Below are positions 8,086 through 61,384 of a DNA stretch of 64,000 nt, piece by piece. Location: positions 12,349 to 76,348 of the IMG/VR virus record IMGVR_UViG_3300033463_000086; one strand, 5' to 3'. The notes beneath the pieces are model-generated. The model made no database searches, had not been told where the DNA came from, and saw only the letters and a list, made by a program, of their open reading frames with translations. Source of the stretch: a virus (taxonomy: Duplodnaviria > Caudoviricetes). The number at the start of each line of letters is the position of its first letter. Position 1 is the first letter of the stretch. A program made the translations under genes and the position numbers.

Positions 8086-8389
8086 CGTCAACCTCTTCAG
8101 CATCAGTAATTTCAAGACTGTCACTGAGCATCTCAATAATAGCTTTTTTGACGAGATATGCCTGAGTTGCGTCAGTGTCTTCCTGAAGTTTACTGACAGT
8201 TTCTTCAAGTTTATCCATACGCTCACAGAGTTCATTAAGAACACCAATCGTGAACTTCTTGAAGTTGTTGTTACGCACATCAGCATTCAGCTCGTGGATT
8301 GCTTCTTTATCAACAATGCCGACCTTCTTGCAGACGTTAGCGAGTTTCTTTGCGGAGATTTTCTTGATAGTGAGTTTCATGTTTTTCAC
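8072..8389 (-). CDS. Hypothetical protein with acidic tail
   Basis: ORF track; ATGA coupling with helicase stop. Confidence 0.65.
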   Translation of the reverse strand: MKNMKLTIKKISAKKLANVCKKVGIVDKEAIHELNADVRNNNFKKFTIGVLNELCERMDKLEETVSKLQEDTDATQAYLVKKAIIEMLSDSLEITDAEEVDDDED

Positions 8390-9924
8390 CTCGTGGTTGG
8401 TTTTGGTAGTTCAGCGAAGTTATGGACACTTAGAATGTGAGGCGTTCCACAAGCCAAGCATCCGTAAAGTTTAGCCTGTTGTCGTTCATCATAAGGAGAT
8501 TCACGTTTAAGTAATGCCGCAATTCTCCAAATGTTCTTGATTCGCTCTTCTGGTGTCTGATTGATAGCGTAAAGAGCTGAACAGTTATCAATCTTTCGTT
8601 TATCCTCAGAGAACGATGCCAACGTCAAATCCTCTGTATTAAAGCCTGTTGCGTTGGATTGTGTAGCCGTAACAACAAGGCATTTGAATATATCGGCATA
8701 AGCACGTATTGACCGCCACCTCTGATTGACTGCCTCGCGTGGGTCTCTTCCCTCGGTTGCCATAGCGTCAATGTAGTCTATAACAACCACGTCAGGATGT
8801 TCCCAACCGAGCTTCTTGCAGATGTTCTTTGTCAGCGTAACCAGACCGCTATACGTAAGAGAACCTAATGGAAACTGCTCAACGTACAGACTGCCTTTGT
8901 GCTTCTGATTGACCCAAGAATCACGCATGAGTTTGGCAATTTCAGGTGTCAGAATCGGGTTATGCACCTGACGATAGGACACAGCTTCCTTATATTCCTT
9001 GCAAGCCTTATCATCACATGGGATATATTCGTCGCTTGTGATAACAGGTCTATCGGGAATATCGTTCCATTCGTTGAGAAGACTGCCACTGCCTTTACGC
9101 TCAAAACAAGTGCCTTTTTGGTTCTTTACGCAATCCAAACAAGGTATGAATTGTTTATCCGCATATTCAGGTGAGGTGGAAGTCTTGGCATCACCGCAGA
9201 GGATTCGTTTGTTGACCTGATTTTTGGTAAGGTCTCCGCAACTGATGAAGAGGGTTTTGTTTCCCTGATTACGTGCTACTCTGGCTGTGTAAATGAGCAT
9301 GTGAGATTTGCCCACTTTACCACGACCCTCAAACACGACAAAGGAATTTCGGGTAAGCGTATTGTTCATAAGCCTACCTAATTCACCCTCGAAGGAAATC
9401 AGCCGTTCATCCTCTTGACGGAACAAATCATCAATCTCGGAATCAGTGGCTTGCAGAATATCGGTTGAATTGACTACGACAGGCTTAATCTCATCAACAG
9501 AGTTAAGGAGTTGTTTAGCCTCATCGAGTTTACCTGATTCTACTAATGCACTGGCTTCTTCCGAGGACAGCTTGATGATTTGAGCCTGAAAGTAGTTGTA
9601 AGCCTCGTCAATCTCAACCTGAATGTCGGTAATCGGTTCCTGATTGGCAAACGAAGACAAGACAATCTGTATCTCTGATGCCACTTCGGGTTTGATTTTA
9701 CCTAATGCAACCTGATTCTTAAAGACGCGCTCGAACTTATCTTCCGGTGCGGTGTGGAACTTATTGAAGAAGACAATGCAGATACGAGCCATGACAGAGT
9801 AGTACCGATTCGACAGTACGCCCTGTTTGTATTTATCCGCAAACTCTTCAAGGAACTGTGTGGAGTTGACCATATCATAAACGATACGTAACTCCAAATC
9901 AGCCGTAGCCTCAATTATTTCCAT
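8386..9924 (-). CDS. Replicative helicase, DnaB-like (SF4)
   Basis: Walker A EGRGKVGKS, VVVIDYID, VVTATQSN. Confidence 0.88.
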   Translation of the reverse strand: MEIIEATADLELRIVYDMVNSTQFLEEFADKYKQGVLSNRYYSVMARICIVFFNKFHTAPEDKFERVFKNQVALGKIKPEVASEIQIVLSSFANQEPITDIQVEIDEAYNYFQAQIIKLSSEEASALVESGKLDEAKQLLNSVDEIKPVVVNSTDILQATDSEIDDLFRQEDERLISFEGELGRLMNNTLTRNSFVVFEGRGKVGKSHMLIYTARVARNQGNKTLFISCGDLTKNQVNKRILCGDAKTSTSPEYADKQFIPCLDCVKNQKGTCFERKGSGSLLNEWNDIPDRPVITSDEYIPCDDKACKEYKEAVSYRQVHNPILTPEIAKLMRDSWVNQKHKGSLYVEQFPLGSLTYSGLVTLTKNICKKLGWEHPDVVVIDYIDAMATEGRDPREAVNQRWRSIRAYADIFKCLVVTATQSNATGFNTEDLTLASFSEDKRKIDNCSALYAINQTPEERIKNIWRIAALLKRESPYDERQQAKLYGCLACGTPHILSVHNFAELPKPTTR

Positions 9925-12029: not shown

Positions 12030-13302
12030 TGATATTCTCCTGTTTGATTAGACGGTCGATTGCTCTTATTACACGCTCTGATGTAATGTTTCTGGTGCAT
12101 GAGAACTTTGTCGTTTCAAGTGCATCTCGTTCCTGTAGAAGCATGTTGCGCTCTTCCATCGTTGGTGCTTCGTAGATTTTCTTTGTAAGCTCGAAGACCT
12201 TTTTATCGACACGAGGACACCAAAGCCAAGCACTATGCCAGAAAGGAATCGTCATATCGCCCCAACAGTCTTTACACGGATTTTCTTCATTGAAAACACG
12301 GTAAGGAGTGTAGAACTCATTTTTAGGTGCTGTGAATCCTGAAATCATAACAACAGGTTTCTCACACGCCCAAGCAAGCCAAGACAGACCTGAAGTCATA
12401 CCGATAAAGAACTCAGCACCTCTTATCTGATTGACACGATGCTGTAAGGTATAATCACCAGTCCAGTCAATAGCTTCATGTGGAGCTTTCTGATATGAAC
12501 CCGGCAGACCAACGATGTTTGTTTTGTCAATGCACATCACGTCAAATCCAAGTTCGTTCAGGTGTTTTATCACGTCAGACCACCCATACGGATTCCACCA
12601 CAGCTTGCATCCTTTACTGCCTGAGAAACCGATACAGACATAAGGACGGTCTGTTTCAATCTGTTTGGTAGCTTTCAGGATAGGCGGTTTAGGTTCGATA
12701 TTGTTCGGCAGTCCCAATATGTTAGCCGCTAAACGATTCAAACCATGCTGTTGATAAGGAAGTTTACCCCATAGCGGCTCAACGTCCTTATCGAAGAAGA
12801 TGCCGATAAAATACGTTGCGTATATGGGTATCTCGGACAGCATTGATTCGTCAGACACCATTGTTATCTCAGGATAATGTGGCGCAAACAACTCCACGAA
12901 CCAAGGCTGTGCAAATACAATCGGCTTGCATTTGTGCTTTTCGATGAACGCGAGTATCTGCGAGAAGTGGGCAATACAATCACCCAGCGTTTTATGGGCG
13001 ATTCTGAACCTGACGTACCTGTCCTTGCAATCGAATGTGGTGGAGAAAACATTGTGGGACTTCGTGTTGAGAGCCACAATCTTCCACTTCACATAATATT
13101 TGGTTGGGGTGGCGAAGTAAGCACCGGGGGCAAGCTCTACATGATATAAGAGGTCCCCTGTGTCTTCATTGAAAAAGCTGACAGACCAAGTACCTTCAAC
13201 ATCCTTTGGTGTTTTTACCTCAGCCCCATAATTGAAACTGAACTGGATTCCGGTAACAGGGTCTTTCAACAGTTTCACATCATCTTCAAACTGTTCCATC
13301 AA
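12004..13302 (-). CDS. Autotransporter strand-loop-strand O-heptosyltransferase (Aah/TibC family)
   Basis: FNYGAEV, TLGD catalytic motif, KLWWNPYGW, FIGMTSGLSWLAWACEKPVVMISGFT...EF, iron-finger CxxC...WCPR...CTR. Confidence 0.92.
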   Translation of the reverse strand: MMEQFEDDVKLLKDPVTGIQFSFNYGAEVKTPKDVEGTWSVSFFNEDTGDLLYHVELAPGAYFATPTKYYVKWKIVALNTKSHNVFSTTFDCKDRYVRFRIAHKTLGDCIAHFSQILAFIEKHKCKPIVFAQPWFVELFAPHYPEITMVSDESMLSEIPIYATYFIGIFFDKDVEPLWGKLPYQQHGLNRLAANILGLPNNIEPKPPILKATKQIETDRPYVCIGFSGSKGCKLWWNPYGWSDVIKHLNELGFDVMCIDKTNIVGLPGSYQKAPHEAIDWTGDYTLQHRVNQIRGAEFFIGMTSGLSWLAWACEKPVVMISGFTAPKNEFYTPYRVFNEENPCKDCWGDMTIPFWHSAWLWCPRVDKKVFELTKKIYEAPTMEERNMLLQERDALETTKFSCTRNITSERVIRAIDRLIKQENINVPSKPLA

Positions 13303-14240
13303 TTTAACAGCTCCTTAATCTCGGCAAGTTCTTTTCTACCGTCCTTTGTTTTCAGGAGGTCATTCAGGTCTTTTCCATGCGACCAATGAATACGGTAGAC
13401 TTCTGTACGGTGTGAGAGTTGGTTTACGAGCTGATGTGCCGCAGATTCACCAGCCGAATCCATATCGTAGGCAACGTAGACCTTACCGAATGTAGCCAAC
13501 TCGTTTATTTGTTCTCTTGTGAAACAGCAACCGTGAGTATGAACAGCACCGTCACCAACAGACATGGCATCGTAGGCGGCTTCCGTAACGATAACAGTAT
13601 CAGCCGGAACATTATCAATACCCCACAGGAACGACTTGCATGGTATCAACTCTTCGTATTCGCAGGCGGTTATGTACTGTTTCTTGACGTAACTGCCACA
13701 CTGAAACGAAACAAGCTGACCCTGCAAGTAATTCGGTATTACAATGCAGTTGGCGTACTTGTTTGAATACCGCTGTTCCTTGACCGTCTTGTAGTATGTG
13801 AGGTACTGGTCTGCTATGCCTGTTGAACTGAGGTGGTACTTCCTGATTACATCGTCAGCACAATCAGGGAACCGCTTCATCAGGTACTCATAAGCACGAA
13901 GAAGCATAGCACCATTCCCCGGCAGTACAACTTCTTTAGGACGCAACGAAATCTCCTTCATATCCTGTTTGTCAATATTCTTGAACAAACCATGAAGGAT
14001 GTGCCTTGTTTCAGTTCGTTTCGTACCGAGCAAGTTGGAAAAGACTGCTACGGTGGAATGGTAGCCGCACTTGTAACAGTTGCAGTAACCTTCTTCCAAA
14101 TTGATACCAAGATGAAAGTTCGTATCACCAGACATGCAGAATGGGCAACAAATCTGAACCCATCCACGCCGACAGTGATGATTGCCTTCAAGTCGGTAGT
14201 CAATATGGTTATCCTCTAAAAAATCAATCACTCGGCTCAA
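13299..14240 (-). CDS. DnaG-type primase
   Basis: Zn finger CPFC...CYKC, TOPRIM VTEAAYD and YDMD. Confidence 0.88.
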   Translation of the reverse strand: MSRVIDFLEDNHIDYRLEGNHHCRRGWVQICCPFCMSGDTNFHLGINLEEGYCNCYKCGYHSTVAVFSNLLGTKRTETRHILHGLFKNIDKQDMKEISLRPKEVVLPGNGAMLLRAYEYLMKRFPDCADDVIRKYHLSSTGIADQYLTYYKTVKEQRYSNKYANCIVIPNYLQGQLVSFQCGSYVKKQYITACEYEELIPCKSFLWGIDNVPADTVIVTEAAYDAMSVGDGAVHTHGCCFTREQINELATFGKVYVAYDMDSAGESAAHQLVNQLSHRTEVYRIHWSHGKDLNDLLKTKDGRKELAEIKELLN

Positions 14241-17263: not shown

Positions 17264-17294
17264 TAATATAGCACCTTTTTCTGTAAAGTCAAGC
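17264..17294 (-). promoter_or_regulatory. Sigma70-type promoter
   Basis: TTGACT-N16-TATATT with TGn and A/T-rich upstream element. Confidence 0.7.
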
Positions 17295-23640: not shown

Positions 23641-23671
23641 TAATATAGCACGACAAAGATAAAAGTCAAGC
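23641..23671 (-). promoter_or_regulatory. Sigma70-type promoter
   Basis: TTGACT-N16-TATATT with TGn. Confidence 0.7.
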
Positions 23672-38719: not shown

Positions 38720-39395
38720 GACTGATTAGAATGCACCGGATTGTGCATTCTTGACAATCTACAAACCCCCGTAGGGAATGGCGTATAGGGCTTATCTGCC
38801 GCAGCATGCTTATCTATACGCCATTGTTGTTGCAATATTTAGGACTCAATATTGCCATTCGTTAATCTATAGGGCGGAAGTATCATTGAATAATTATTAC
38901 GTTTTGATTTTAAGTTTATTGAATAATTTATCTTTGATACATTTTAATTTTTGTCGCTATTGTCAATCATAGCGGAGAATTAGGACTTATTCATCGGGGT
39001 TTGTGCCGAAAGTAATGGGCTGCCTTTCTCAATGCCGCTGATATTGTTGTATATCACCCATTCTCTCCTACTTTGCATCGCTTATTAGTGTAGTTTCTAT
39101 GCCCGTGTTCGCGTGTAAGTATTCTTGCATTTAACTATATTTCTCACTGACCGTATGCCAAAAGGTCTGCGATAGCATTTTGGACTTATGCCTTATCGCA
39201 GAGATAGGACAGAGTACATTCCATCACTATTCTGCTTTATGGGCTGACGGCTAACCCCCTACCGAAATGCAAGACCGTAGTCCTATTGCATACCGTAGTA
39301 TACTGCATTCGGAAATCGGGTATTACATAGGAATCCCCGTCAACCGAATGTCAAAGAACACCACCTGGGCGGCGAATGAACGCCCCGTCCCACAG
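38720..39395 (-). ncRNA. Candidate structured leader / ncRNA
   Basis: No ORF of gene size; at least 7 hairpins; starts just below promoter 39401-39433. Confidence 0.45.
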
Positions 39396-39400
39396 GATAC

Positions 39401-39603
39401 TATAATATAGCACTTCATTAGCCAAAGTCAAGCCCTCATTTTGACAATTTTCCGAATGTTTTTGAAATTTTTTATCGAAAGTTATCATTGTTACTTAACG
39501 TAAATGCTTAACGTATCTTTAACGTTACCTGTCTTCATAAATAAGGTATAGCACGTCATAATCAAAAGTCAAGCCCTCATTTTGACAATTTTCCGAATGT
39601 TTT
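39401..39603 (-). promoter_or_regulatory. Tandem early promoters sharing a 39-bp duplicated -35/UP block
   Basis: aaagtcaagccctcattttgacaattttccgaatgtttt at 39424-39462 and 39565-39603. Confidence 0.7.
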
Positions 39604-39720
39604 ACCCTATACGGAATCTTATCTACATTTGCGGTAAAACTCAAGCATTATCCGTATCGGCAGTGCATTAGTTATCCGCATTTGTATGAAGATTGTGTAT
39701 ATGTAAAGTTATCCTGATTA

Positions 39721-39780
39721 TACCCTATCGGGACTATTTTAGCCATTTTATCCGATTTTATACCCTATCGGGACTATTTT
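39721..39780. repeat. 20-bp direct repeat
   Basis: TACCCTATCGGGACTATTTT at 39721 and 39761. Confidence 0.9.
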
Positions 39781-39838
39781 ATCTATGGTCTAACATTAAT
39801 CATATGGTTGTTAATGACGGTTTATCGAATGTAATAAA

Positions 39839-40179
39839 AAGTTAGTCCAGCCTAAGTCATTCAAAGCGCCACTATTAGAGTTTACATTTGTTTTTTACTC
39901 GTTTTTAATGATAGGTGTGTTGGTGTAATAGTGATGCGGTGTACTATAACAGTAATACACCTATGGTATAAATTTAATTAATACTGAGTGTCATTTTGGT
40001 GGCAGTTTGTATTTATGGTGGCACTGTGTCATTATAAAAACAGGGTGTAAGTGTTCTCCGCCCGACACCAGCATTTCATAACTTAGGCTGGACTAACTTA
40101 TGTAAATAACTGACACTCAAATATTTACAACTTACATAACAATAAATACACATAAATGACTTAGGCTCAACTAACTTTT
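39839..40179. repeat. 19-bp inverted repeat plus a third imperfect copy
   Basis: AAGTTAGTCCAGCCTAAGT 39839-39857; reverse complement 40081-40099; 21/23 copy 40157-40179. Confidence 0.85.
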
Positions 40180-40644: not shown

Positions 40645-40908
40645 TTAGAGCTGGCCTTTTGTCAATCTCGGCAAGATTGTATTTTCAAAGATAAAGCTCG
40701 CAATCTCGGCGGCTAAATTGTCGGCCTCGGCTTCGGCCTCAGTTTTTGCCGCTTCGGCCTCGGCTTCGGCTATCGCCTCGGCTTCGGCCTTTGACAAAAG
40801 ATAGATAGTTAAATCTAACTCTTGTTTCAACTCTTCGAGCTTATCTTCGAGCTTGTCTTTGTGACGTCTAAGAGTAGAGATTCTTTGTGATAACTTGTCG
40901 TTTTTCAC
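40645..40908 (-). CDS. Coiled-coil protein with EAEA repeats, GTG start
   Basis: AAAGGA RBS, GTG start, no internal Met. Confidence 0.65.
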   Translation of the reverse strand: MKNDKLSQRISTLRRHKDKLEDKLEELKQELDLTIYLLSKAEAEAIAEAEAEAAKTEAEAEADNLAAEIASFIFENTILPRLTKGQL

Positions 40909-40945: not shown

Positions 40946-41720
40946 GCTATTGTGCTTTATTGTGCCGCTTGTCGGTTAGGTTTTTTGTTTGTTGTTGTTT
41001 GTTGTTGGAGTTGTTTACTTTGCGGCGGCCTTTTCGGCCTTGTCGGCGGCTTCGGCGGCCTTTTCAATAGCCGCTTTTAAGCTGTTGTTGTATTTTTCTA
41101 TTGTTGCGGCTTCGGAGAGCGGCACAATAACAACAGCAAAGCCGAGGAGGCGGAGAATAAGAATAAACCTTTTCCAGTAGCCGTACTGACCGCAACTTGT
41201 TGCACCTGAGTCGATAAGCTGTTTTTGTGTATAGTCAACAGCGAGGGCCGAAGAGAGAGCAACTGCGGCTTGCCGCAAGTCGTTTTTTGTGACTTGTTTG
41301 TCTTTTGCGGCCTTTTCGGCCTTGTCGGCTTCGGCCTTTGTGCCTTCAGAAGCTTTCTTTGCGGCTTCGGCCTTTGCCTTTGCTTCGGCGGCGGCTTTGT
41401 CGGCCTTTGCGGCTTCGGCCTTTGCGGCCTTTGCGGCTTCGGCGGCTTTGCTTGCCTTGTCAATCTTACCGCTTGAGAGCAACTCAAGAGCGGCGGCGGC
41501 CTTGTCGGCGGCTTCGGCCTTTGCGGCTTCGGCCTTGACTTCGGCGGCCTTTGCTACTAACTCAAGAGCGGCGGCGGCCTTGTCGGCTTCGGCGGCCTTT
41601 GCTTTGAGCTTTTCGAGAGCGGAGAGCGGAGAGAGAGAACGAACGAACGAAAAGATTGTTTCAAACGTAATCACTTTTTGACTGCACTTTCTAACAAGCG
41701 GCACAATAAAGCACAATAGC
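40946..41720. repeat. Perfect 27-bp inverted repeat pair enclosing an ORF
   Basis: GCTATTGTGCTTTATTGTGCCGCTTGT 40946-40972 and exact reverse complement 41694-41720. Confidence 0.92.
41015..41674 (-). CDS. Ala/Lys/Glu-rich repetitive protein (histone H1/TolA-like composition); start uncertain (GTG 41674 or upstream)
   Basis: AAEADKAAAALEL repeats; open frame over 650 nt; no Met codon. Confidence 0.55.
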   Translation of the reverse strand: MITFETIFSFVRSLSPLSALEKLKAKAAEADKAAAALELVAKAAEVKAEAAKAEAADKAAAALELLSSGKIDKASKAAEAAKAAKAEAAKADKAAAEAKAKAEAAKKASEGTKAEADKAEKAAKDKQVTKNDLRQAAVALSSALAVDYTQKQLIDSGATSCGQYGYWKRFILILRLLGFAVVIVPLSEAATIEKYNNSLKAAIEKAAEAADKAEKAAAK

Positions 41721-42238
41721 GAGAGAGTTGTATATTTTTCAAAGAGCAACAGCCGAAAAACAAGCGGCTTCACAAAAGAAAAGATTTTTAGAGTTATTTT
41801 ATACAGTTTTTATTGAATAAATTATAACGTTTACACAATACACTATAAATAAGCACGTTACAGAATACAGCAATAAACTAATAGTTCGGCATTCCTAATT
41901 ACTTTGCCGCAAAGAAAAAGTCTTAACCTATTGATAATCAAAGAGTTGCACCAAATTAGATTTAGTAAGGCGGCTGGGACCCTATAGAGTACCTCACACA
42001 TACAATCCACATTTTCAAAACCCATCAATAAAATCACTTACTGCAATTCCCTATAAATAAGTAAATTACAGTATAGGATTATTTGCACCAGTTTATAAAT
42101 CAAGGATATATGTATTAAACTGTCAAAGAACAAAACAAATTGACTTATGACAAAACGCTACTGAGAACTTTGCAATAATGAGCGTAAAGTTTGCATTATC
42201 GTCTACACTTATTGATATTTATAGACACTTTGGCGCAT

Positions 42239-42339
42239 AACTGGTACGAAAAATGTGCCAAATAACTGCAAAACTGGTTGGAAAAATGTGCCAAAGTGCC
42301 ATTTAAGGGTAATATTTGCACTTTGGATTGCACTTTGGA
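42239..42339. repeat. Iteron-like direct and inverted repeats
   Basis: GAAAAATGTGCCAAA x2 (33-bp period, each preceded by AACTGGT); TTGCACTTTGGA x2 tandem; CCAAAGTGC/GCACTTTGG inverted. Confidence 0.8.
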
Positions 42340-42609
42340 ATACTTGCTTCAAATACATCAAATATGACGCAATTCTTTATAAAATACGCTCGAAAATGCT
42401 ATATTTGATTGATTGTACGTTTGAAATTTAGTTGACATGTTGACCTAATTTCTAACAAAACAGCTATAATGATATAAAATTATGCACACAGAGGTAATGA
42501 CAACCATATGATTAATGTCTGTTTTTGGATTAATGTCTGTATAATAAAAAGACACGTACAGAAGCGGCAACTAATGTACGTGTCAAAGCAGAGGAGCCAA
42601 GATATGCGA

Positions 42610-42813
42610 TTAAGAATGTTTTTGTTTCAGTTCATAAAGAAGAATGGTATATGCGATAATTTCTTCAATGTACTTATATAGCCAGCGTTTATCGTCATCA
42701 TCAAGTTCAAATGGAATACGATTTATGAGTAATTTCTTTTTGAGTAGGTGGTTTTCATGTTTAAGTCGTGTGTTTTCTTGAATGTAGTATTGTTCATTCA
42801 TAGCTAATCTCAA
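42610..42813 (-). CDS. Hypothetical protein (true start probably MNEQYY)
   Basis: ORF coupled to the polymerase-like gene. Confidence 0.5.
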   Translation of the reverse strand: MRLAMNEQYYIQENTRLKHENHLLKKKLLINRIPFELDDDDKRWLYKYIEEIIAYTILLYELKQKHS

Positions 42814-44023
42814 TGTTATGGCGTGTAAGATTATGGTAGCAGTTTCTCATAAGGGTAATGACAGAGCTAACATCGGATTCACGGCAAATACAGGAATCGT
42901 GGACAGGAATGATTGGGATATTAATTGATTTGGCAAGTTCAAGGATAGAAAGCATCAGTTCGGAATCGGCGTTTTGAAGTCTGAGACCAAAGTTATCGTC
43001 AGCAAAGAAATGTTCACGGATAGCAGAATGACGTTCAAGCATTTTGGATATAGCAAGTTCAACATCAAGGTAGTTGTATTTGTTTTTGACGTAAGGATTT
43101 TCAAGGATGGCGTTAATGGCTTGATTTCGTGTTGTGCAGTTAAGAGAGATAAGGATGACCTTCTTGGCAAACTTACGGTCCGGTACGAAGTCATAAGCAT
43201 CGCCAACAAGTTCTTTTCCGTTAAGGTTATAGGCAAGATTGATATGGAGGCAGTGGAAATCCGGTTCGACTGTTGCTTCTCCGTTGATTTCTATGGTCTT
43301 GCGTTCAGATTTTTTGAGGGTCTGATATGTAAAACCGTTGCCATCAGTACAGGTAGCATACAATCTTCCACCATGTTCCCAATCCTCAGTATAGACAGAT
43401 TGAAGGTTGATGCGGAGGCGTTTCTTTTCGTTGTTCTTAATGCAGGTAACAAGGACAGAATCAGAGTAATAAGCGTTCAGGGATTCAATAGAGTGTTTTT
43501 TCGCTAAGATGTTGGTAGGTAAAGAGTTAAAATCAAGTTTAATGTCGTGTTTGTTCTTTTTAAGGCGTATGGTATTGGTGTGTTTGGTGTTGAAAATGTG
43601 TTTATGAGCTTTGTTCTTGGTATTGAAAATGAAAGTTAAGGCTTCAGTGGCAAAATATCTGGAACGGTAATTGTTTACATTGGAAATCAAGTCTTTATGC
43701 CCCTTGATTTCTTTAAGATAGCCACGATTGACAAGGAAATCAAGGACTGCATTGAGCTTGCGGACCGAGATTTTCTGTTCCTTTAAGGTGGTTGTCTTGT
43801 TGTATGCCGCCCAAACGTGACAATCTCTGGACACGTAGAAGCCAGTCCCGCACATTGACGTATAAAGAGCGTTGCACAGAACCATTGTAAGGTACTTCTT
43901 GGCGTCAACAGTATTAATTTCCTTGGCAAACCCATCAATAAGTGGTTCGACTTCCGGGAAATTGAGTTCTGCGATAACGTCAATCGGTTTGGCTTGTCTG
44001 ATTTGAGTTGTTTTCGTGTCCAT
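42794..44023 (-). CDS. Stand-alone superfamily-A polymerase-like protein (TV-Pol-like) with N-terminal winged-helix-like region
   Basis: GGRLY, motif A EPDFHCLH, motif B RKFAK, GLRLQNADS, motif C PVHDS; no exonuclease. Confidence 0.72.
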   Translation of the reverse strand: MDTKTTQIRQAKPIDVIAELNFPEVEPLIDGFAKEINTVDAKKYLTMVLCNALYTSMCGTGFYVSRDCHVWAAYNKTTTLKEQKISVRKLNAVLDFLVNRGYLKEIKGHKDLISNVNNYRSRYFATEALTFIFNTKNKAHKHIFNTKHTNTIRLKKNKHDIKLDFNSLPTNILAKKHSIESLNAYYSDSVLVTCIKNNEKKRLRINLQSVYTEDWEHGGRLYATCTDGNGFTYQTLKKSERKTIEINGEATVEPDFHCLHINLAYNLNGKELVGDAYDFVPDRKFAKKVILISLNCTTRNQAINAILENPYVKNKYNYLDVELAISKMLERHSAIREHFFADDNFGLRLQNADSELMLSILELAKSINIPIIPVHDSCICRESDVSSVITLMRNCYHNLTRHNIEISYE

Positions 44024-44051
44024 AGGTTGCCTTTTTGTGTTTTACGAGATA

Positions 44052-44172
44052 TAATATAGCACCGTTTCCGAAAAAGTCAAGCGAAAAAGCAACATTTCTA
44101 CAAACTTTTTTCGATTTTCTTTTTCTTGATTTGGTGTAGTATCTAATATAGCACAGAATCTCCAAAAGTCAA
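44052..44172 (-). promoter_or_regulatory. Two tandem promoters for the TV-Pol-like gene
   Basis: TTGACT...TGCTATATT at 44052-44083 and 44145-44172. Confidence 0.65.
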
Positions 44173-44451
44173 ATCTAAATCAAAGAAATAAATTAGAATA
44201 TTTGATATATAATTGTCGAATCCTACATATACTATTTACCATATACGCACTACAAGTCACAACCTCTTCATTCTCAGCTACTTACAAAAACACCCTCAAT
44301 TTCTGCTTATTTTACCTATTTACATTGATTTATGAGCAGGTTTTAGACGCATAGATATTACCGTTCGGGCATATTTTCGGTTTTCATTCGGTAAAATTTC
44401 AAAAATGTTACCGTTCGGGAATAAAAAATAAAAATCGAAAAAAGTTATAAA

Positions 44452-44495
44452 TATGTTACTTTTTTGCTTGACTATTTGGTTATTGGTGTTATAAT
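44452..44495 (+). promoter_or_regulatory. Late-class promoter of the terL operon
   Basis: TATGTTACTTTT-N4-TTGACT-N16-TATAAT. Confidence 0.6.
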
Positions 44496-44521
44496 ATGTG
44501 TTGACTTACTATAGGAGGACT

Positions 44522-44875
44522 ATGCAAAACATACCAATCGAGTTGAACAGACACTATCGGCATGATGAGATTTCCATACAGTGCGGCGAATCTGCATACA
44601 CTTTGGCATTAGAAAACCAAGATGATATTCGCAGACGGTTTGTTCGTAATGAAAACGTCCACTGGTATGTAACTGCAAAGCGTCGTGGGAAAACTACATT
44701 GAGTTATATCGTTGTTCATAAGAAAGACATAACAACTTCTCAGAATGCAGCGAAGCGTACTATCTTTATGAGTTATGAAGAAGCACGTGAAATTGCTAAC
44801 GAACTTATGCACTCTGAAATGTTTTATGCGGTAAATATTGTCGAATGCTATGACAGGGTGGGTGTATGCCTCTAA
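44522..44875 (+). CDS. Hypothetical protein
   Basis: AGGAGG RBS; overlaps terL start. Confidence 0.7.
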   Translation: MQNIPIELNRHYRHDEISIQCGESAYTLALENQDDIRRRFVRNENVHWYVTAKRRGKTTLSYIVVHKKDITTSQNAAKRTIFMSYEEAREIANELMHSEMFYAVNIVECYDRVGVCL

Positions 44876-46164
44876 AACTGACAGAAAAACAAAAATATGG
44901 CATGAAATTGCTGAATGACCCTAAATACACGAGAATTGCGTTTACTGGTGGTTCTCGTGCTGGTAAGTCTGTTGCATTTATGGAATTTCTGATGCAGAGA
45001 GCATTTCAATTCCCCGGTTCCAGACAACTCATATGCCGCAGAGCCTTGGTTGATGCAAGACGAGCTATTTGGGAAGACACCTTGAAGAAATACTTGACGG
45101 ACCAGATACCGGAATCAGAATATACGTTAATGAAATCTGAAATGAGAGTGGTATTCAAGAATGGGTCCACGATTGAGTTGGGTGGTTTGGATGGCGAGGA
45201 CCAGTTGCAGAAAATACTTGGTACTGAGTATCTTACAATATGGCTGAATGAAGCTACTGAAATGAGGTTTGAGGCTGTTACGATTCTGATTACTCGTCTG
45301 GCTCAATCCGTAAAGGACACCACAGGCACGTTTACAGGGATAAATAAGCTGATTGCTGACGCTAACCCCTCTTCCCCTCGTAATTGGGTCAAAAAGTGGT
45401 TTATTGACAACGTAGACCCCACCACAAGACCGCCAAAGAAGCTGAAAGACGCAGATAAGTTCGTTCACCTGCACTTTACCCCCTACGATAACGCTGAAAA
45501 CCTACCTCCGGGATATATCGAACAGCTTGACGCACTTCCTTACGAGATGCGTGAAAGAATGCTCAAAGGTAACTGGATTGGTGGTGAAGGTCAGATATTC
45601 AAAGAGTTCAATGCGGAGAAACACTTGATTGCTCCGTTTGAAATACCGAAAACATGGGAAAAGGTGAGAGCCATTGACTTTGGTTATAATCACCCTTGCG
45701 CCATTTTATATACGGCTTACGATTATTCAACAGATACTATATATGTATATGATGAATATAAGGAATCCGGTAAGACGATTGATGAGATTGCAAATTACAT
45801 GAACAGCGTGGAGCAGAAGAGGCACGAGTTCTATGATTGCACGTGGTCAGACCATGACAAATCAGACCGCGCTTTCTTGGCAAAACATGATATTGTCACA
45901 AGGGCGGCGAAAAAGTCTGTTCTGGACGGTATCAATGCAGTACGTCAGCGTCTTTCTGAGATAAGCCCCAAGACACACAAACCTAAACTGCTCATATTCA
46001 ACAACTTAGATGCCCTGATTGACGAAATGTACAGTTATGAATGGCATCAGTCCGAATCGGAGGTTATGGATAAGGACGCACCAGTCAAAATCAATGACGA
46101 CCTTGTTGATACATTGAGATATATTGTTTATGGTAGAGATAAAGACAACGGAATTTCATTATAA
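44866..46164 (+). CDS. terL: Terminase large subunit (PBSX-like)
   Basis: TGGSRAGKS, WLNEATE, IDFGYNHP, DDLVDTLRY. Confidence 0.95.
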   Translation: MPLKLTEKQKYGMKLLNDPKYTRIAFTGGSRAGKSVAFMEFLMQRAFQFPGSRQLICRRALVDARRAIWEDTLKKYLTDQIPESEYTLMKSEMRVVFKNGSTIELGGLDGEDQLQKILGTEYLTIWLNEATEMRFEAVTILITRLAQSVKDTTGTFTGINKLIADANPSSPRNWVKKWFIDNVDPTTRPPKKLKDADKFVHLHFTPYDNAENLPPGYIEQLDALPYEMRERMLKGNWIGGEGQIFKEFNAEKHLIAPFEIPKTWEKVRAIDFGYNHPCAILYTAYDYSTDTIYVYDEYKESGKTIDEIANYMNSVEQKRHEFYDCTWSDHDKSDRAFLAKHDIVTRAAKKSVLDGINAVRQRLSEISPKTHKPKLLIFNNLDALIDEMYSYEWHQSESEVMDKDAPVKINDDLVDTLRYIVYGRDKDNGISL

Positions 46165-46175
46165 GGAATTTGAAT

Positions 46176-47804
46176 ATGGATAGCACAATTACTGTAAACA
46201 CATCCACTGACGCACAGACCCCGAACGAGCGAATCTTCAATCGGGTCAATGCCTATTATCTTGCAACAAGAAATACTTGGCGAAAAGCTCTAAAGGCATA
46301 TAATGGCGGCACGGGTTATTTGAAGGAAACGCTTAGGAAACACCCATCCGAAACAGATGAAGAGTTTCAGGAGCGTGTGGACAACTCTTATAATATCAAC
46401 TTAATCAAATACAGCGTCAAGGAGTTCGGCAATTACATTTTCTCCAAGACACCGCGAAGAAACAACGCGGATGAGGAAATCGTAAAGGACTTTGACCGCC
46501 AACAGAAGCAGGTGAACGAAGTTATGTGGAATCTGTTTCTGTATCATAACCTTTGCGGTCTCACTTGGGCTTTGGTTGATATGCCGCAATTCAGAGGCAA
46601 CGAGATTGACATAAAGACCAAACAGGAGCAGAAGATTCGTCCGTGGTGTAAGGTACTTTCTCCGCTTGCCGTTCCTGACTGGTGCTTTGATAAGTTCGGC
46701 AACCTTGAATGGATTATTATTGAGGAGTTCGTTGTTGAGAAGGACAATCCGTTTGCGGAACCTAAACTCATAAAGAAACGCACCCTCTATACGAAGACCT
46801 ACTATCAGGTGTTCTCTGCTATTATTGCCAGCCCGACTGCATCTGTAAAAAACAATGAGATTCGGGTAGGCAGAAAGATTAGGAACACTATTGGTGTGGT
46901 TCCTGTCATTCCGTATAGCGACCTTCTGTTTGATAAGGACTTCAATACTCCTGAGATTGCTGACATCCTTACAATTTATGATGCGATTCTGGCAGGTGAA
47001 TCCGAGCTTCTCACCAATATCCTGAAGCAGACATACGGACAGCTTGTACTTCCCATGTCTTCGCACTCTATGGTGAGCAAAGTCAAGGCTCGTCTGTCTG
47101 AGGCTGGAATCGACCCAAATTCTCCGGCTACCACAGCAATCATAACTCAGGAAATCGGTATGGAGCTGTCTCGTACAAAGGCAATTTACGAAGACGAGGG
47201 CGAGAAACAGATTGCCCGGTACATCCAACCAGCCGGAGCTACCACGGAATCCATTATCAACCACAATGACCGTCTGCTTGCTCTTACAATGAAGATTACA
47301 GGCTTCCTTGTCGGTGTTTCCACTACACAGCGTGAATCGGCAGACAGCAAGGCGGTGGATAATGCTTCTCTTGCCGCACAGCTCATACGTATTGCAAGCC
47401 GACTTGAGGAGCTTGAGCTGAATATCTGGAAGCTGTTCAATATGTTTGACCCATCTATTCAGGTCCCGAAGGTTGTTTACAGCAAGGACTATGATATTCA
47501 CGAGTTCAAGGCTGTTATTGCTGGTATTGTTGAGCTTGCAAACGTCAATGGCGGCGACAATTTCAAACAGCAGGTACTTAGGACTGCGGTTCATGCTATG
47601 GACAGTATTCATCGGATTCCTGACGAAACATACGAACAGATTATGGATGATATTGAAAACGGCAAAACATCCGCACTTCCTCCTACTTTTTCCGGCAAGG
47701 CAGATTACATTTCAGATACCTCCGGGAGCAGACCTGACAGTGTAAGAGCCAAGACGGATTATGACGGCTCGAACGAAAAAATAGGAAAAACTGAAAAAAT
47801 TTAA
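46176..47804 (+). CDS. Portal protein
   Basis: Follows terL; ~540 aa; YLKETLRKHPSE...RVDNS, DFDR, PLAVPDW, ESADSK. Confidence 0.85.
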   Translation: MDSTITVNTSTDAQTPNERIFNRVNAYYLATRNTWRKALKAYNGGTGYLKETLRKHPSETDEEFQERVDNSYNINLIKYSVKEFGNYIFSKTPRRNNADEEIVKDFDRQQKQVNEVMWNLFLYHNLCGLTWALVDMPQFRGNEIDIKTKQEQKIRPWCKVLSPLAVPDWCFDKFGNLEWIIIEEFVVEKDNPFAEPKLIKKRTLYTKTYYQVFSAIIASPTASVKNNEIRVGRKIRNTIGVVPVIPYSDLLFDKDFNTPEIADILTIYDAILAGESELLTNILKQTYGQLVLPMSSHSMVSKVKARLSEAGIDPNSPATTAIITQEIGMELSRTKAIYEDEGEKQIARYIQPAGATTESIINHNDRLLALTMKITGFLVGVSTTQRESADSKAVDNASLAAQLIRIASRLEELELNIWKLFNMFDPSIQVPKVVYSKDYDIHEFKAVIAGIVELANVNGGDNFKQQVLRTAVHAMDSIHRIPDETYEQIMDDIENGKTSALPPTFSGKADYISDTSGSRPDSVRAKTDYDGSNEKIGKTEKI

Positions 47805-47852
47805 TACTTATGTTGCAGATTTACTTGCAATATACTCACTTTCCACTATATT
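47803..47852 (+). promoter_or_regulatory. Late-class promoter of scaffold/capsid
   Basis: TATGTTGCAGAT-N4-TTGCAA-N16-TATATT. Confidence 0.7.
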
Positions 47853-52053: not shown

Positions 52054-52443
52054 ATGAGTAATTCAAACAGAATAAAAAAAGTTGAAGATTTCATTTGTGA
52101 TAGGTTAGATGCAATTTTCAATGATTCTATCAAACTGCAAAAAGAGTTTGATGCATCTAAAGAGTGTCGCTCTGTCAGTATTGCTGGGTTGGGGCGCACC
52201 ACAGATGACCAGCATACGATGCTGGGTGGTACATTAGATTACATCGCTTGCCGTACAAAACGAAGTGATGCAGTAGCTGATATAGATAAAATACAAAAAA
52301 ACTTCAACATTTATAATACTTATGTTGCAGATGGACTTGTAATTTCAGTGGTTCTGGTATATATTACATCTCCAATGAGAACTATTGTGGATTCTCATTA
52401 CGGATGGACTTATACAGCGACTTTTGAAGTTACTACTACATAA
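52054..52443 (+). CDS. Tail terminator/completion protein (putative)
   Basis: Position before tail tube; YTATFEV end. Confidence 0.55.
   Translation: MSNSNRIKKVEDFICDRLDAIFNDSIKLQKEFDASKECRSVSIAGLGRTTDDQHTMLGGTLDYIACRTKRSDAVADIDKIQKNFNIYNTYVADGLVISVVLVYITSPMRTIVDSHYGWTYTATFEVTTT
52315..52365 (+). promoter_or_regulatory. Late-class promoter inside the completion gene, serving the tail tube gene
   Basis: AATACTTATGTTGCAGAT (18 bp identical to 47803-47820)-N4-TTGTAA-N17-TATATT. Confidence 0.65.
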
Positions 52444-58232: not shown

Positions 58233-60314
58233 ATGGCAGATACAACATATACAACTAAGTGCTATCTAAAGGGTAGTGTTCAGACCTCGATTGACAATTC
58301 GGGGAACATTACGAAGAACTTTACTTGGATGGTGCTTAATGCAAACGAAACCAATACCTTACTGGAATGGTTGGCGTTTCAGGATTATGTAGAGACTGAA
58401 TGGGCAGGTAAATCTGGCGACAACTGGAAGAAACCTGTTCAGCAGGCTGGAAGCAAGGAATGTACTGCTTTTGATAGTACGGACGATAGCTTCATTGTTG
58501 CAGACCTGACCATTGAAACACCTCCGGGCAGAACGCATGTTGAGGTTACTTATACCTGCACTGGAAACCCGAATAAAATCAAGCACTTTACGGATGGTGG
58601 TCTTTCCATCAACTCTTCGGATGAGCGTACCAAGTCTTTCAGCTTCAAGTATGTTATCCCAGAAAAGCAGGTTACGCTTGGTGATGATACTTGGACTGCA
58701 CCTGATTTGGAGACGGTCGAAACTACTATTGACGGTCTTTTCAAGATAAACGATAATGTCACTTGGGCTGATTCTGAAGGTCACACTTACGTTGTTGATA
58801 ACGTTTCTGTAAGCCAAGAATCTCCAAGTGTTTACAACGTCACTGTGTCCCTTAAAGACATGGCTAAGATGCGTGTCGGTCTGATTTCCGTGAATGAAGA
58901 CAGTTACGGACAGAAGACAATTTCGATTACTTGGCGGCTCTCTAAGGAAGAATATGACGAAACTGACCTGCCCAATTCCGGTGATGCTGTAGGTACTTGG
59001 GTTGGTGAGGGCTATGACGGCGTTGGTTATGACAATTACGTTGTGACTGGTGTTGAGCATAGTCCTGACGGTAATCTCGGCTACCTTGTTACAATCAGTG
59101 CAAAAGACACCACATTTACCAGACTTCATACCCAGCGTGATTACAAGTGGAACGGTACAGGTCTTGAGAAATCTGCCAATGTTGTTTATCAGCTTCATAG
59201 CAAAGAGGACGCAGAACAGTTCCTCAATAACCTTGGTCGTGAGACGCTGGATGTTGATGGTGAATCATTTACGGTAAGAGACGCCAATATTACCCAAAGC
59301 GGTAAAGACGATTATGAGCTGTCCCTTTCGCTCTCTGATGATTTGACACCGCTTATCGTCAACATCGGCAGCAACACCCCTGATGATTTGGACAAGGATA
59401 TTCAGGTTTCTATGACTTACGGTACTTTCAGACTTACTCCTCATCAGTGTGGTCTGTTCCGCAGTCTGTCCAATCTTGCTTACTATCCAATCAATAATCC
59501 GCCTAACACCAAATTCAACACACGGATTTTGGTTTCCGACCTGCAAGAAATGGATAGCAGGTGGACAAACGCTATGCTAACAAACATTATAACAAGCCCT
59601 AATCCTCGTATCGGTTTTTCTGACATTGTGGCTTGCTATGACGGCAGTGACAATAAGGTGAAGAAAGAGCTGTGGAGTACATATCCTGTGGGTGAAGCAA
59701 GCGGTGTTGGCTCCAAGTTCATTAACAGCTTCAAACTTTCTCAATACGTTTATCCACAGCCCACATTTACGGAATCTTCTTATGGTGAAACACCCAAATA
59801 CAGTGAGTTCTTTGTTCCGTGGGTTGCGAAGAATGACTTGCTGATTATTCCCGGTGGCAGTACATACAACGGCAGAACACTTAATACCGACCTGAGTAAT
59901 TATCCGAAGTATGATAACGGTCTTGATATGGCTCTTCCGCAGAGATGGCTCAACAGGAAGATACCTTACATGGATTGCACAGTCACCATGAACTATCGTG
60001 GCAACCTTCAATCCAACATTAAGAAGAATTGGGATGATTACTTCCTGAAAGCAATCAAGCAAATCTGTAAGGAAGCCGAGTTGATTGGTAAAGATTCCAG
60101 CTCCAACTTCAACAAATACTTTATGATGCCTTACGAAAAAGCCGCAAGGAATCATAGCCAATACCCACTTACCAGCTTCAAACGCACTGGTATGTCTGTT
60201 CAGCGGATTATTGACACCAAGGGTCACGAATGGACGCAAATCACAATGAACATTCAGGCTCTTTGTGGTGATTACTGGAACTACAACTACAAAGATAAGG
60301 TTGACTTTGAATGA
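58233..60314 (+). CDS. Tail protein with internal repeated beta modules
   Basis: Follows tape measure; repeats of YVV-NVS...YNVTVS-KD type. Confidence 0.6.
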   Translation: MADTTYTTKCYLKGSVQTSIDNSGNITKNFTWMVLNANETNTLLEWLAFQDYVETEWAGKSGDNWKKPVQQAGSKECTAFDSTDDSFIVADLTIETPPGRTHVEVTYTCTGNPNKIKHFTDGGLSINSSDERTKSFSFKYVIPEKQVTLGDDTWTAPDLETVETTIDGLFKINDNVTWADSEGHTYVVDNVSVSQESPSVYNVTVSLKDMAKMRVGLISVNEDSYGQKTISITWRLSKEEYDETDLPNSGDAVGTWVGEGYDGVGYDNYVVTGVEHSPDGNLGYLVTISAKDTTFTRLHTQRDYKWNGTGLEKSANVVYQLHSKEDAEQFLNNLGRETLDVDGESFTVRDANITQSGKDDYELSLSLSDDLTPLIVNIGSNTPDDLDKDIQVSMTYGTFRLTPHQCGLFRSLSNLAYYPINNPPNTKFNTRILVSDLQEMDSRWTNAMLTNIITSPNPRIGFSDIVACYDGSDNKVKKELWSTYPVGEASGVGSKFINSFKLSQYVYPQPTFTESSYGETPKYSEFFVPWVAKNDLLIIPGGSTYNGRTLNTDLSNYPKYDNGLDMALPQRWLNRKIPYMDCTVTMNYRGNLQSNIKKNWDDYFLKAIKQICKEAELIGKDSSSNFNKYFMMPYEKAARNHSQYPLTSFKRTGMSVQRIIDTKGHEWTQITMNIQALCGDYWNYNYKDKVDFE

Positions 60315-61318
60315 GCGCACTTAGAGACAAGTACCAATCTGTAAGTCAGTTCTTCAAGGACGTTAAGCGCGTCATTGAGGATATAGTTACACGCCTGTCT
60401 GATGTTGAAGCCACTATGGACAACTTCGGTGGTGGCGGTATTCCTCAAGAAGAAGACTTACCAGCGTATGAGGCAGGTGAGGGTATTGCTATTGATGACG
60501 AACAAATCAGCCTGAATTATGATGGTCCGTTTGCTGTTCACGTAGACCATTATGACGAAACCACACCAACCACAATGTACGTACAGGCAAATTCCGGGCG
60601 TATTATGATTGACCAGACTTCGGTGTTCTCTACTGCTCCGGCTGAGGGTGTTTATACAGCGTTAGGTTCAGGTCAGGTTATGTGGTTAAAAGTCAACTTT
60701 ACCACAATGACAAGCATTACAACTGAATACTTGGCGGCTTCTGAGACGTATTATACTGATACTCAAAACATTATATACATCAGACTTGCCAAAAACGTTG
60801 ATGGTACGCTTCGTCAGTATCAGTTCGGTGACATAAAATACAGACGGCAGGGTGTTTCAAAACTGTCGAGTACAAACACAAGTACAGCCGCTATTTCAAC
60901 ACAGGCTGGTTATAATGAAGGTACTGGTCCGCTGAATCTTACTGTGTATAGCGGCAGTACGCCAACACCTCCTACACCCCCCACACCTTACAGCAGTGGT
61001 GGAATGATGTTCCCGAATTACATGAACCTTGCTGATACTTCTCCATACGGCACTTCAATGTATGAGGGTGTTACTTATACAATGGGTAACGCAGGTTGGA
61101 TTCGTTTTACTTGTTTCGGTACTACATTAGCTGGTGCTTGTGAGTTTATACACATCGACAACAATGCAATCGGTATGTATAAGGGTGGCGGTGGTGGTTA
61201 TACTACATTCTTACCTGTAAGCAGTGGTGCTGTTGTTTACTATACTGGTGGTGTTCCGTGTCTTGTTAAATTCGACGGTTATGCGACAAGTAATGGCATA
61301 GTTTCCAGTACGGCGTAA
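60311..61318 (+). CDS. Tail/baseplate-associated protein, S/T/G/Y-rich
   Basis: YEAGEGIAI, PTPPTPP linker, C-terminal MFPNY...AGW domain. Confidence 0.55.
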   Translation: MSALRDKYQSVSQFFKDVKRVIEDIVTRLSDVEATMDNFGGGGIPQEEDLPAYEAGEGIAIDDEQISLNYDGPFAVHVDHYDETTPTTMYVQANSGRIMIDQTSVFSTAPAEGVYTALGSGQVMWLKVNFTTMTSITTEYLAASETYYTDTQNIIYIRLAKNVDGTLRQYQFGDIKYRRQGVSKLSSTNTSTAAISTQAGYNEGTGPLNLTVYSGSTPTPPTPPTPYSSGGMMFPNYMNLADTSPYGTSMYEGVTYTMGNAGWIRFTCFGTTLAGACEFIHIDNNAIGMYKGGGGGYTTFLPVSSGAVVYYTGGVPCLVKFDGYATSNGIVSSTA

Positions 61319-61340
61319 ATTTCCTGAAATAAACTATAAT

Positions 61341-61384
61341 TATGTTGCAGATACATTTGACTTTTAAGTTTTCCAAAGTATATT
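61341..61384 (+). promoter_or_regulatory. Late-class promoter
   Basis: TATGTTGCAGAT-N4-TTGACT-N16-TATATT. Confidence 0.7.

Follow-up and report, generated by a model that had tools for sequence, protein, structure and literature searches.

Why a tailed phage should carry a second, stand-alone family-A-like polymerase when its genome already encodes a DNA polymerase I (PolA), a DnaB-like helicase and a Toprim primase is the question raised by one gene of the virus record IMGVR_UViG_3300033463_000086 (Duplodnaviria; Caudoviricetes). The stretch that we analysed, hereafter the window, comprises 64,000 nucleotides, bases 12349-76348 of a complete record of 76,348 bp, the assembly of which we take to be circular because the length of its terminal repeat, 127 bp, is a k-mer size in common use by assemblers. 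The gene encodes a protein of 409 amino acids (aa), heads a long leftward block of genes and diverges from the packaging and structural operon. As the first-pass annotation, made from the letters alone, had stated, it stands far from the replisome genes, about 29 kb separating it from the block that holds PolA and the primase. Our analyses indicate that the protein is almost certainly an active polymerase of the divPolA2 family, as judged from its sequence and a structural model. On circumstantial functional reasoning, they point more tentatively to a site-specific primase-polymerase that would start replication at an origin.

An AlphaFold2 model computed with 14 homologues (pLDDT 83.3, pTM 0.78) was compared with the PDB using Foldseek, and the top matches were all family-A polymerases (Taq, Klenow, Bst and apicoplast Pol; E ~2e-6, probability 1.00). 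In an independent all-against-all structure search with VIA over 48,161 representative chains, residues ~140-409 matched apPol (Z 14.5), Aquifex Pol1 (Z 13.9), yeast mitochondrial RNA polymerase (mtRNAP; Z 13.7, root-mean-square deviation 3.7), T7 RNA polymerase (T7 RNAP; Z 13.0, root-mean-square deviation 3.4) and Pol nu (Z 13.0), with N4 RNAPII at Z 8.2. Both searches uphold the PolA-like fold that had been proposed for the protein. At the level of sequence, phmmer and family-profile searches against PDB sequences reached no polymerase, canonical PolA included, and the gathering score of the Pfam family PF00476 was not attained; across the whole genome PF00476 was matched solely by the PolA gene of the replisome block (E 3.6e-34).

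The N-terminal part of the model, residues ~21-140, is a winged helix. Its best VIA matches were the winged helices of MarR, RosR, Z-beta, MotA-NTD and S19e, at modest scores (Z 6.3-7.2), and the order of secondary-structure elements assigned by DSSP is canonical (H41-57, E62-65, H68-77, H87-99, E103-106, the wing, E120-125); a comparison with the PadR profile was marginal (E 0.7). The protein has neither an exonuclease domain nor a canonical thumb, so that the earlier description of an exonuclease-less polymerase with a winged-helix-like N terminus agrees with the model.

Residue conservation was tallied by aligning 123 diverse homologues, which share 22-53% identity with the window protein. 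Eight residues, G219, R220, R241, D255, K287, N295, H375 and D376, are invariant, followed by H260 and S377 (120 sequences each), R283 (116), D275 (110) and L291 (106). In the model, D255 closes a beta strand and is followed by a helix, H375-D376 lie within a beta-hairpin turn, the GGR220 element, present in all 123 sequences, joins strands E205-212 and E219-225, and R283xxxK287 opens the first fingers helix (283-294), after which come helices 299-308 and 318-331. An hhalign comparison with the family of the phage's own canonical PolA was co-linear over 319 columns, if weak (pairwise E 8.7e-4, probability 23%). It placed YQ.L..R241 (Q234, R241) on PolA fQNiP.R, E253.D255....H260 on motif A with H260 at the steric-gate Glu, and PVH375D376S on motif C; a comparison of a first family profile with a single PolA sequence by the same program found no relation. 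The family pattern GGRFY...Q.L.K..R also resembles the PolA motif-2 consensus TGRLSS...QNIP.R. Motifs A (D) and C (HD), which the first-pass annotation had listed as intact, are thus corroborated, both catalytic Asp residues falling on their PolA counterparts, while the RxxxK assigned to motif B is conserved in the family and lacks a residue-level registration on PolA.

In Klenow, the sugar pocket is formed by the steric-gate residue E710, F762 (K+4), Y766 (K+8) and E883 after the motif-C Asp. The window protein carries H260, L291, N295 and S377 at these positions and does not match the canonical set. Three of the positions co-vary within the family. The H/N/HDS subtype accounts for 108 of the 123 homologues, counting the window protein, and an E/Y/[FY]DE subtype includes the divPolA2 prototype AUR84708 and one allele of phage ICP1; these subtypes may mark different nucleotide selectivity. 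Motif A, with the pattern D-[YF]-x-x-[LMI]-H, comes near to the DYSQIE of PolA; its last position holds a bulky His where PolA has the steric-gate Glu. This weakly suggests that deoxynucleoside triphosphates (dNTPs) rather than ribonucleoside triphosphates (NTPs) would be the substrate.

By sequence, the protein is a member of divPolA2, a family already published in 2024 and defined from 110 barbaviruses plus further phages (Yutin et al. 2024, Virol J 21:200, PMC11348598). Its published features, an active palm, no exonuclease, no canonical thumb and an N-terminal globular domain of unknown kind, are those of the window protein, and the prototypes are Rheinheimera phage Barba18A and its relatives and AUR84708 of Vibrio phage 1.063.O (PMC11348598). 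Our family profile gave a single match in MG592441.1 (25463-26704, E 5.7e-46), which is the coding sequence of AUR84708.1, the prototype of their Fig. 7. The window protein itself aligned with AUR84708 in BLASTP (E 1e-17, 25% identity over 340 aa), and Barba31A was matched in a BFVD structure search (E 2.5e-21). The likeness extends to the mixture of PolA and mitochondrial/N4 RNA polymerases among the fold matches, also seen by Yutin et al., and to a gene that is additional to the regular replicative polymerase and lies outside the replication module. On the other hand, the companion polymerase here is a split PolA and not a PolB, and the window protein is of the H/N/HDS subtype whereas AUR84708 is E/Y/FDE and PolA-like. 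The N-terminal domain, without detectable similarity in that study, is read here as a winged helix, a further point to which the present analysis adds. An exhaustive profile search collected 10,358 homologous clusters at 50% identity (E up to 1e-3), and tblastn found homologues in 266 phage records, 127 of Vibrio and 114 of Rheinheimera phages, the others including Aeromonas and Pseudoalteromonas phages. In PHROGs the 409-aa protein matched phrog_4756, of unknown function (E 1e-50), while scans against Pfam (even at E 10), NCBIfam and PADLOC gave zero matches.

Cellular relatives were sought in one genome per prokaryotic species. The 135 found include Paracoccus denitrificans, about a dozen Methylobacterium, Roseovarius, Geomonas, Desulfobacterales and Planctomycetes. 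Among the 121 loci at which neighbours were tabulated, tyrosine integrases occurred at 29 and serine recombinases at 11, as expected if the homologues were the replication starters of the elements that carry them. Three relatives of 931-948 aa (P0032, P0096 and P0105) combine the whole winged-helix and divPolA2 module, with all catalytic residues kept, with a full-length DRT4 (UG15) reverse transcriptase (PADLOC E ~1e-165), and the two genomic fusions, in metagenome-assembled genomes (MAGs; L064:~4246-7060 and L124), adjoin MmeI-type restriction-modification genes. These fusions came from the exhaustive search, which alone covered the band of 716-985 aa; a search for fused forms of at least 985 aa found none, which is weak evidence. 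Elsewhere, the second polymerase fused to Abi/UG-class reverse transcriptases has the AEP fold, whereas in the DRT4 fusions it is a family-A module, so that divPolA2 fills a slot held elsewhere by an AEP prim-pol; the displacement logic is the one that Iyer et al. applied to the TV-Pol polymerases. Unlike these reverse-transcriptase fusions, the window protein is stand-alone and phage-encoded.

The immediate surroundings of the gene (Table 1) bear on when and where the enzyme would act. Two promoter-like sites precede it, in agreement with the tandem promoters that had been claimed for it, and both are of sigma70 type. They belong to a family, TTGACT-N13-TGnTATAWT, with a strong extended -10, of which the window holds seven members where chance would yield 0.08, and among window genes only the divPolA2 gene has two copies. 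The 63-codon open reading frame (ORF) that overlaps the polymerase stop codon may encode a translationally coupled partner. Its product matched nothing in Pfam, NCBIfam or PHROGs, and small, tightly abutting downstream ORFs are common in related loci, although not detectably homologous to each other. Directly beyond the gene pair lies an ORF-poor, AT-rich region with several repeats: GCACTTTGG occurs four times at 42225-42338, where all three exact copies of the window and one near-copy fall, a 28-nt repeat twice (42235-42295) and a 13-nt repeat twice (42510-42540). An Rfam scan of 40.8-44.9 kb gave no match. The minimum of the cumulative GC skew of the whole genome is a trough at ~39.6-42.4 kb of the window that contains the repeat region and precedes the transcriptional strand switch (44.0-44.5 kb) by 2-4 kb. 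The divPolA2 gene itself has a GC content of 37%, against 43%, and a GC skew opposite to that of the other leftward genes.

Between the polymerase gene and the packaging operon, CCCGAACGGTAA occurs twice on the minus strand (44358-44369 and 44408-44419), 50 nt apart, with one other near-copy in the window (one mismatch, at 53049), and the pair may be an operator. Ahead of each of three late operons stands a conserved box of ~18 nt with the core ATACTTATGTTGCAGAT, followed after 4 nt by sigma70-like -35/-10 elements whose spacing reads as about 15-17 nt in the alignment; the box is probably an activator site. Within the same skew trough lies a 1.1-kb ORF-free region, and amid the AT-rich area two Ala/Lys/Glu-rich repeat proteins are encoded at 50-64% GC by ORFs with many repeated 12-mers (e.g. 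CGGCTTCGGCCT, seven copies), for which family scans were without match. The canonical PolA of the phage is split, with its polymerase domain in one ORF and a UDG-superfamily domain plus a 3'-5' exonuclease in a separate upstream ORF, reminiscent of the UDG-PolA and split exo/pol arrangements that Czernecki and colleagues reportedly described in 2023.

Table 1. Features of the divPolA2 locus and of the genes discussed with it (window coordinates).
Feature	Position	Strand	Details	Basis
divPolA2 / TV-Pol-like gene, 409 aa	42794..44023	-	ATG start; stop codon 42796-42794	ORF call; phrog_4756
N-terminal winged-helix domain (model)	43604..43963	-	residues ~21-140	VIA, DSSP, marginal PadR profile match
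Minimal family-A polymerase core	42797..43603	-	residues ~141-409	fold matches Z 12-14.5, residue invariance, hhalign
Core motifs		-	beta-hairpin GGR220; motif A D255 (43261-43259); fingers R283xxxK287...N295; motif C H375-D376 (D376 = 42898-42896)	
Distal promoter-like site P1	44145..44172	-	TTGACT-N13-TGc-TATATT; in 32-nt direct repeat with P2, spacing 92 nt	
Proximal promoter-like site P2	44053..44080	-	TTGACT-N13-TGc-TATATT; then AAGG ribosome-binding site and ATG at 44023	
Promoter family members	353-380, 17265-17292, 23642-23669, 39404-39431, 44053-44080, 44145-44172	-		
Promoter family member	44468-44495	+		
63-codon downstream ORF	42610..42801	-	ATG overlaps polymerase stop codon (ATGAATGA)	
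ORF-poor AT-rich region, 836 nt	41774..42609		29-35% GC; directly downstream of gene pair; candidate origin/regulatory region	
Divergent intergenic region, polymerase gene vs packaging/structural operon	44166..44497		CCCGAACGGTAA twice; mirrored plus-strand promoter 44468-44495	
Late box copies	~47805-47825, ~52315-52335, ~61335-61355	+	degenerate copy ~44450	
Terminase large subunit	44866-46164		packaging operon, across the junction	
Portal	46170-47804		packaging operon, across the junction	
PolA polymerase domain	3676-5040	-	replisome	PF00476
UDG/exonuclease	5210-6436	-	replisome	
DnaB-like helicase	8386-9924		replisome	
Toprim primase	13299-14240		replisome	
Ala/Lys/Glu-rich repeat proteins	40645-40908, 41015-41773	-		
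ORF-free region, 1.1 kb	38973-40075			

Evidence on position in other phages comes mainly from ICP1. In ICP1_2006_E, an early bidirectional theta origin has been mapped in 1-kb bins 'near the 60 kb position' (Barth et al., PMC7145576), and the divPolA2 homologue of this phage is at 58,951-60,615. The mapped phage carried an engineered CRISPR-Cas deletion on the upstream side of the gene (cas1 is upstream in MW794152), which could move the gene's coordinates by a few kb and puts the distance between gene and origin at ~0-5 kb. Two alleles, 28% identical over 240 aa, occupy the same ICP1 locus just upstream of gp103. One encodes 555 aa, has the residues H/N/HDA and was found in 43 records (L148:2614-4278; ORF100 of NC_015157, where ORF101 and then the Mom-like ORF102 follow). 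The other encodes 434 aa, has E/Y/YDE and was found in 39 records (L001:5740-7041; MW794152). Each group is at least 99% identical internally, with one record at 95-99%. A literature search on ICP1 gp100 returned nothing relevant. A conserved small protein immediately upstream of the polymerase gene was seen in ICP1-like and Aeromonas phages and in one Pseudodesulfovibrio MAG (L001:5340-5630, L002 4L372D_151, L014 and L097), and is annotated as XRE-family in one record.

Beyond ICP1, an ORF on the opposite strand directly precedes the gene at 18 of 35 viral loci, against 20% of control genes, in crude ORF maps and with some loci near-duplicates; no such bias was found in bacterial loci. A 75,159-bp contig of an Acutalibacteraceae MAG (JAZSPI010000071.1), probably a related phage of the same size, encodes a homologue of 431 aa, 31% identical to the window protein, from which ORFs of 547, 438 and 127 aa diverge; these were read as portal, terminase and a small gene, the layout being judged from gene sizes alone. 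A metagenome scan for close relatives with flanks returned the same phage only.

Taken together, these observations suggest a sequence of events that we put forward with due reserve. The host RNA polymerase would make the protein early and abundantly from the two strong sigma70-type promoters that stand in tandem where the leftward early unit begins. The winged helix would direct the enzyme to specific DNA, for which the likeliest site would be the AT-rich repeat region (41.8-42.6 kb) at the GC-skew minimum, where the polymerase core would begin a nucleic-acid chain de novo or extend a short primer. The new 3' end would then be passed to the canonical replisome of split PolA, DnaB-like helicase and Toprim primase. 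Such a role would, by analogy, resemble that of T7 RNAP or mtRNAP at origins, or of CcPol-MP and AEP prim-pols in mobile elements. An origin role is favoured because in ICP1 a few kb at most separate the homologue from a mapped theta origin, because the gene abuts AT-rich repeats at the skew minimum, and because some bacterial relatives are fused to DRT4, a defence enzyme that synthesises DNA; priming is plausible because de novo priming with dNTPs is established for another A-family polymerase, CcPol-MP. The suggestion of the first-pass annotation that the enzyme primes an origin on the adjacent repeats thus finds circumstantial support in the ICP1 origin and in the repeat cluster.

Several observations weigh against an origin-specific primase-polymerase. 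The phage already has a Toprim primase, and a second primase is not obviously needed. The coincidence of gene and origin in ICP1 holds 'within about 0-5 kb', given the 1-kb bins and the shift that the deletion could cause, and two ICP1 alleles only 28% identical would require co-replacement of the cognate site. GC-skew minima and divergent junctions coincide in phages, and the distinction between a signal of replication and one of transcription hangs here on the offset of 2-4 kb alone; the atypical skew and low GC of the gene could, moreover, reflect horizontal acquisition. In the Acutalibacteraceae contig there is no large non-coding gap downstream of the polymerase gene, and the repeat region is not conserved in position there. 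The fingers motif R283xxxK287 could not be registered on PolA motif B by hhalign (E 0.25). Finally, divPolA2 genes have variable neighbourhoods and up to two or three paralogues per genome (PMC11348598), which would be odd for a dedicated initiator.

Some of the same facts could be explained if the gene were a conflict-related or semi-autonomous cassette, namely the starter of replication for a mobile element now resident in the phage, or a defence or anti-defence enzyme that makes or converts DNA, for instance by filling in single-stranded DNA. We regard this as unlikely, although it accounts for the GC content and skew that set the gene apart from its neighbours, and the exchange of two divergent alleles at one ICP1 locus, in 43 and 39 records, is a turnover typical of arms-race loci. 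The fusion of the whole module to DRT4 beside MmeI-type restriction-modification genes, the integrase and resolvase islands of the cellular homologues, the TV-Pol element in phage Ma-LMM01 described by Iyer et al. 2008, and the variable neighbourhoods and paralogues reported by Yutin et al. 2024 point the same way. However, no integrase, resolvase or transposase adjoins the gene in this phage or in ICP1, the gene is governed by the phage's own promoter family, homologues are spread over the 266 records of Vibrio, Rheinheimera, Aeromonas and Pseudoalteromonas phages, and the stand-alone protein matches no PADLOC model.

A DNA polymerase specialised in repair, gap filling or lesion bypass of phage DNA, which would extend primers without initiating chains, appears to us still harder to sustain. 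An exonuclease-less PolA fold with intact catalytic residues and a motif A near DYSQIE would suit such an enzyme, in a phage that already has a replicative PolA and a primase, and a repair DNA polymerase is one of the two roles suggested for divPolA2, the other being an RNA polymerase (PMC11348598). Against it, repair polymerases do not typically have a winged helix of the sequence-specific type, tandem early promoters or a place at the start of an early unit, the integrase-linked mobile-element context favours a role in starting replication, and a thumb that is missing or replaced predicts poor processivity on ordinary primer-templates.

The third alternative, which had also been raised by the first-pass annotation, is a very small single-subunit RNA polymerase that would either transcribe one class of phage genes or synthesise, at a specific site, an RNA primer or an R-loop, its promoter being recognised by the winged helix. 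The fold matches to T7 RNAP and mtRNAP tie with those to DNA polymerases, as Yutin et al. likewise saw, His replaces the steric-gate Glu and Asn the Tyr at K+8, and neighbours in the ESM Atlas include a cluster auto-named 'DNA-directed RNA polymerase family protein'; the ~18-nt box before the three late operons could in principle be its recognition site. The motif C sequence HDS, kept in 120 of the 123 homologues, is also that of T7 RNAP. HDS as a mark of RNA polymerases was nevertheless rejected, the phage's own canonical PolA having it too. The motif A of T7 RNAP is DGSCSG, whereas that of the window protein is like DYSQIE and has a bulky His at the position of the RNA-polymerase Gly. The protein has no Pfam RNA_pol match, and its 409 aa leave no room for the promoter-binding domain; the specificity loop, intercalating hairpin and N-terminal domain of T7-like RNA polymerases are absent. 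Both the early promoters (TTGACT-N13-TGnTATATT, seven copies) and the late ones resemble sigma70-type promoters of the host, exact 12-mers with at least four copies yielded no family of T7-style promoters, and the characterised relative CcPol-MP uses dNTPs. The proposal of a tiny RNA polymerase is therefore weakened, and we consider it improbable. It would be similarly surprising if the PolA/T7-RNAP fold had, in the H/N/HDS members of divPolA2, its smallest known single-subunit enzymes for site-specific RNA synthesis, whose winged helix would read a specific DNA box at the origin or the late box. If so, a core of 270 aa would make an RNA primer or transcript de novo, sugar selectivity would differ between the two ICP1 alleles (E/Y/DE and H/N/HDA), and such an enzyme would represent a living stage between DNA polymerase I and the T7-type RNA polymerases.

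A role in processing genome termini, the other function that had been proposed, was rejected, the ICP1 homologue being far from the pac site, which lies between gp1 and gp2 (PMC7145576), and no terminase recurring among the clustered neighbours, with the Acutalibacteraceae contig sharing the layout by gene sizes only.

A site-specific primase-polymerase would, if confirmed, matter beyond this phage. The divPolA2 family is very large: it exceeds 10,000 clusters, occurs in 266 phage records and is carried by many bacterial mobile elements, yet Pfam and NCBIfam hold no model for it and PHROGs assigns it no function. Origin-specific priming by its members would constitute a family-A-fold route to replication initiation in tailed phages and integrative elements, beside DnaG and AEP primases, and would account for the retention of a second polymerase by phages whose replisome is complete. 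ICP1 is genetically tractable and its homologue lies near a mapped theta origin, which makes a direct test possible. The winged helix, the alternation of active-site subtypes at one ICP1 locus and the DRT4 fusion respectively provide hypotheses on targeting, on sugar selectivity and on a link with anti-phage immunity.

Among the closest known systems is the subset of TV-Pols (Transposon-Virus polymerases) that has an N-terminal domain; TV-Pols were predicted to be primase-polymerases because they displace AEP prim-pols in situ (Iyer et al. 2008, PMC2579912). Shared with them are a minimal PolA/T7-RNAP-like core with the beta-hairpin Arg and two catalytic Asp residues in an RRM-like palm, the lack of a nuclease, and an extra N-terminal domain. 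The TV-Pol fingers, a tri-helical HTH that is inserted behind the first palm strand and bears a conserved Asp and RxxxK in its first helix, may have their counterpart in D275 (110 of 123) and R283xxxK287 at the first of the three fingers helices, although hhalign gave no residue-level registration of this RxxxK on PolA motif B. Bacterial homologues on both sides have integrase or resolvase neighbourhoods, the window's own copy being without a recombinase nearby, and the host taxa overlap (Paracoccus denitrificans, Methylobacterium, Roseovarius, Geobacter relatives, Desulfobacterales and Planctomycetes). The differences are that no link to a D5-like helicase was seen in the homologue neighbourhoods, that Iyer et al. 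reached PolA by PSI-BLAST whereas sequence profiles of the window family do not by themselves, and that the TV-PolN domain was predicted to be all-helical while the window domain is a winged helix with a small sheet. Phage Ma-LMM01 is a named carrier of an integrated TV-Pol element (PMC2579912). Its genome gave no match to the family profile even with the HMMER filters off, two adjacent weak-scoring ORFs being unannotated hypotheticals. The label 'TV-Pol-like' given at the outset is reasonable by features, host taxa and mobile-element context; divPolA2, likely a TV-PolN-type subset of TV-Pol, is the more precise name. A structural match was also obtained to the replication protein of the Zamilon virophage (E 1.8e-4, 15% identity over 287 columns), the homologue of Sputnik V13.

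The only assayed polymerase among those that Iyer et al. counted as TV-Pols (PMC2579912) is CcPol, which as CcPol-MP of SCCmec is an A-family polymerase that primes de novo with dNTPs (Bebel et al. 2020, PMC7581432). Like the window protein it is exonuclease-less and followed by a small partner gene, and it belongs to a mobile element. Unlike it, CcPol is near canonical PolAs (CHEAP subfamily) and keeps the equivalents of E710 and F762 and three exonuclease helices (PMC7581432; Rice lab 2023, PMC10061031). No winged helix has been described for CcPol, which is linked to the Cch2 helicase and has as its partner the OB-fold protein MP, whereas neither a Cch2-like nor an OB-fold partner was recognised for the window gene. 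The initiators with a 'DNA Pol I domain' of PLE-like satellites offer an analogy only; they are Pfam-recognisable, unlike the window family.

A functional parallel to an origin-specific primase-polymerase is offered by T7 RNAP and mtRNAP, which serve as origin primases, their site-specific start of a chain priming a separate replicative polymerase of family A. These enzymes have 880-1200 aa, use NTPs and possess dedicated promoter-recognition elements. The window protein shares their fold superfamily (Z 13.0-13.7), in just 409 aa and with a winged helix.

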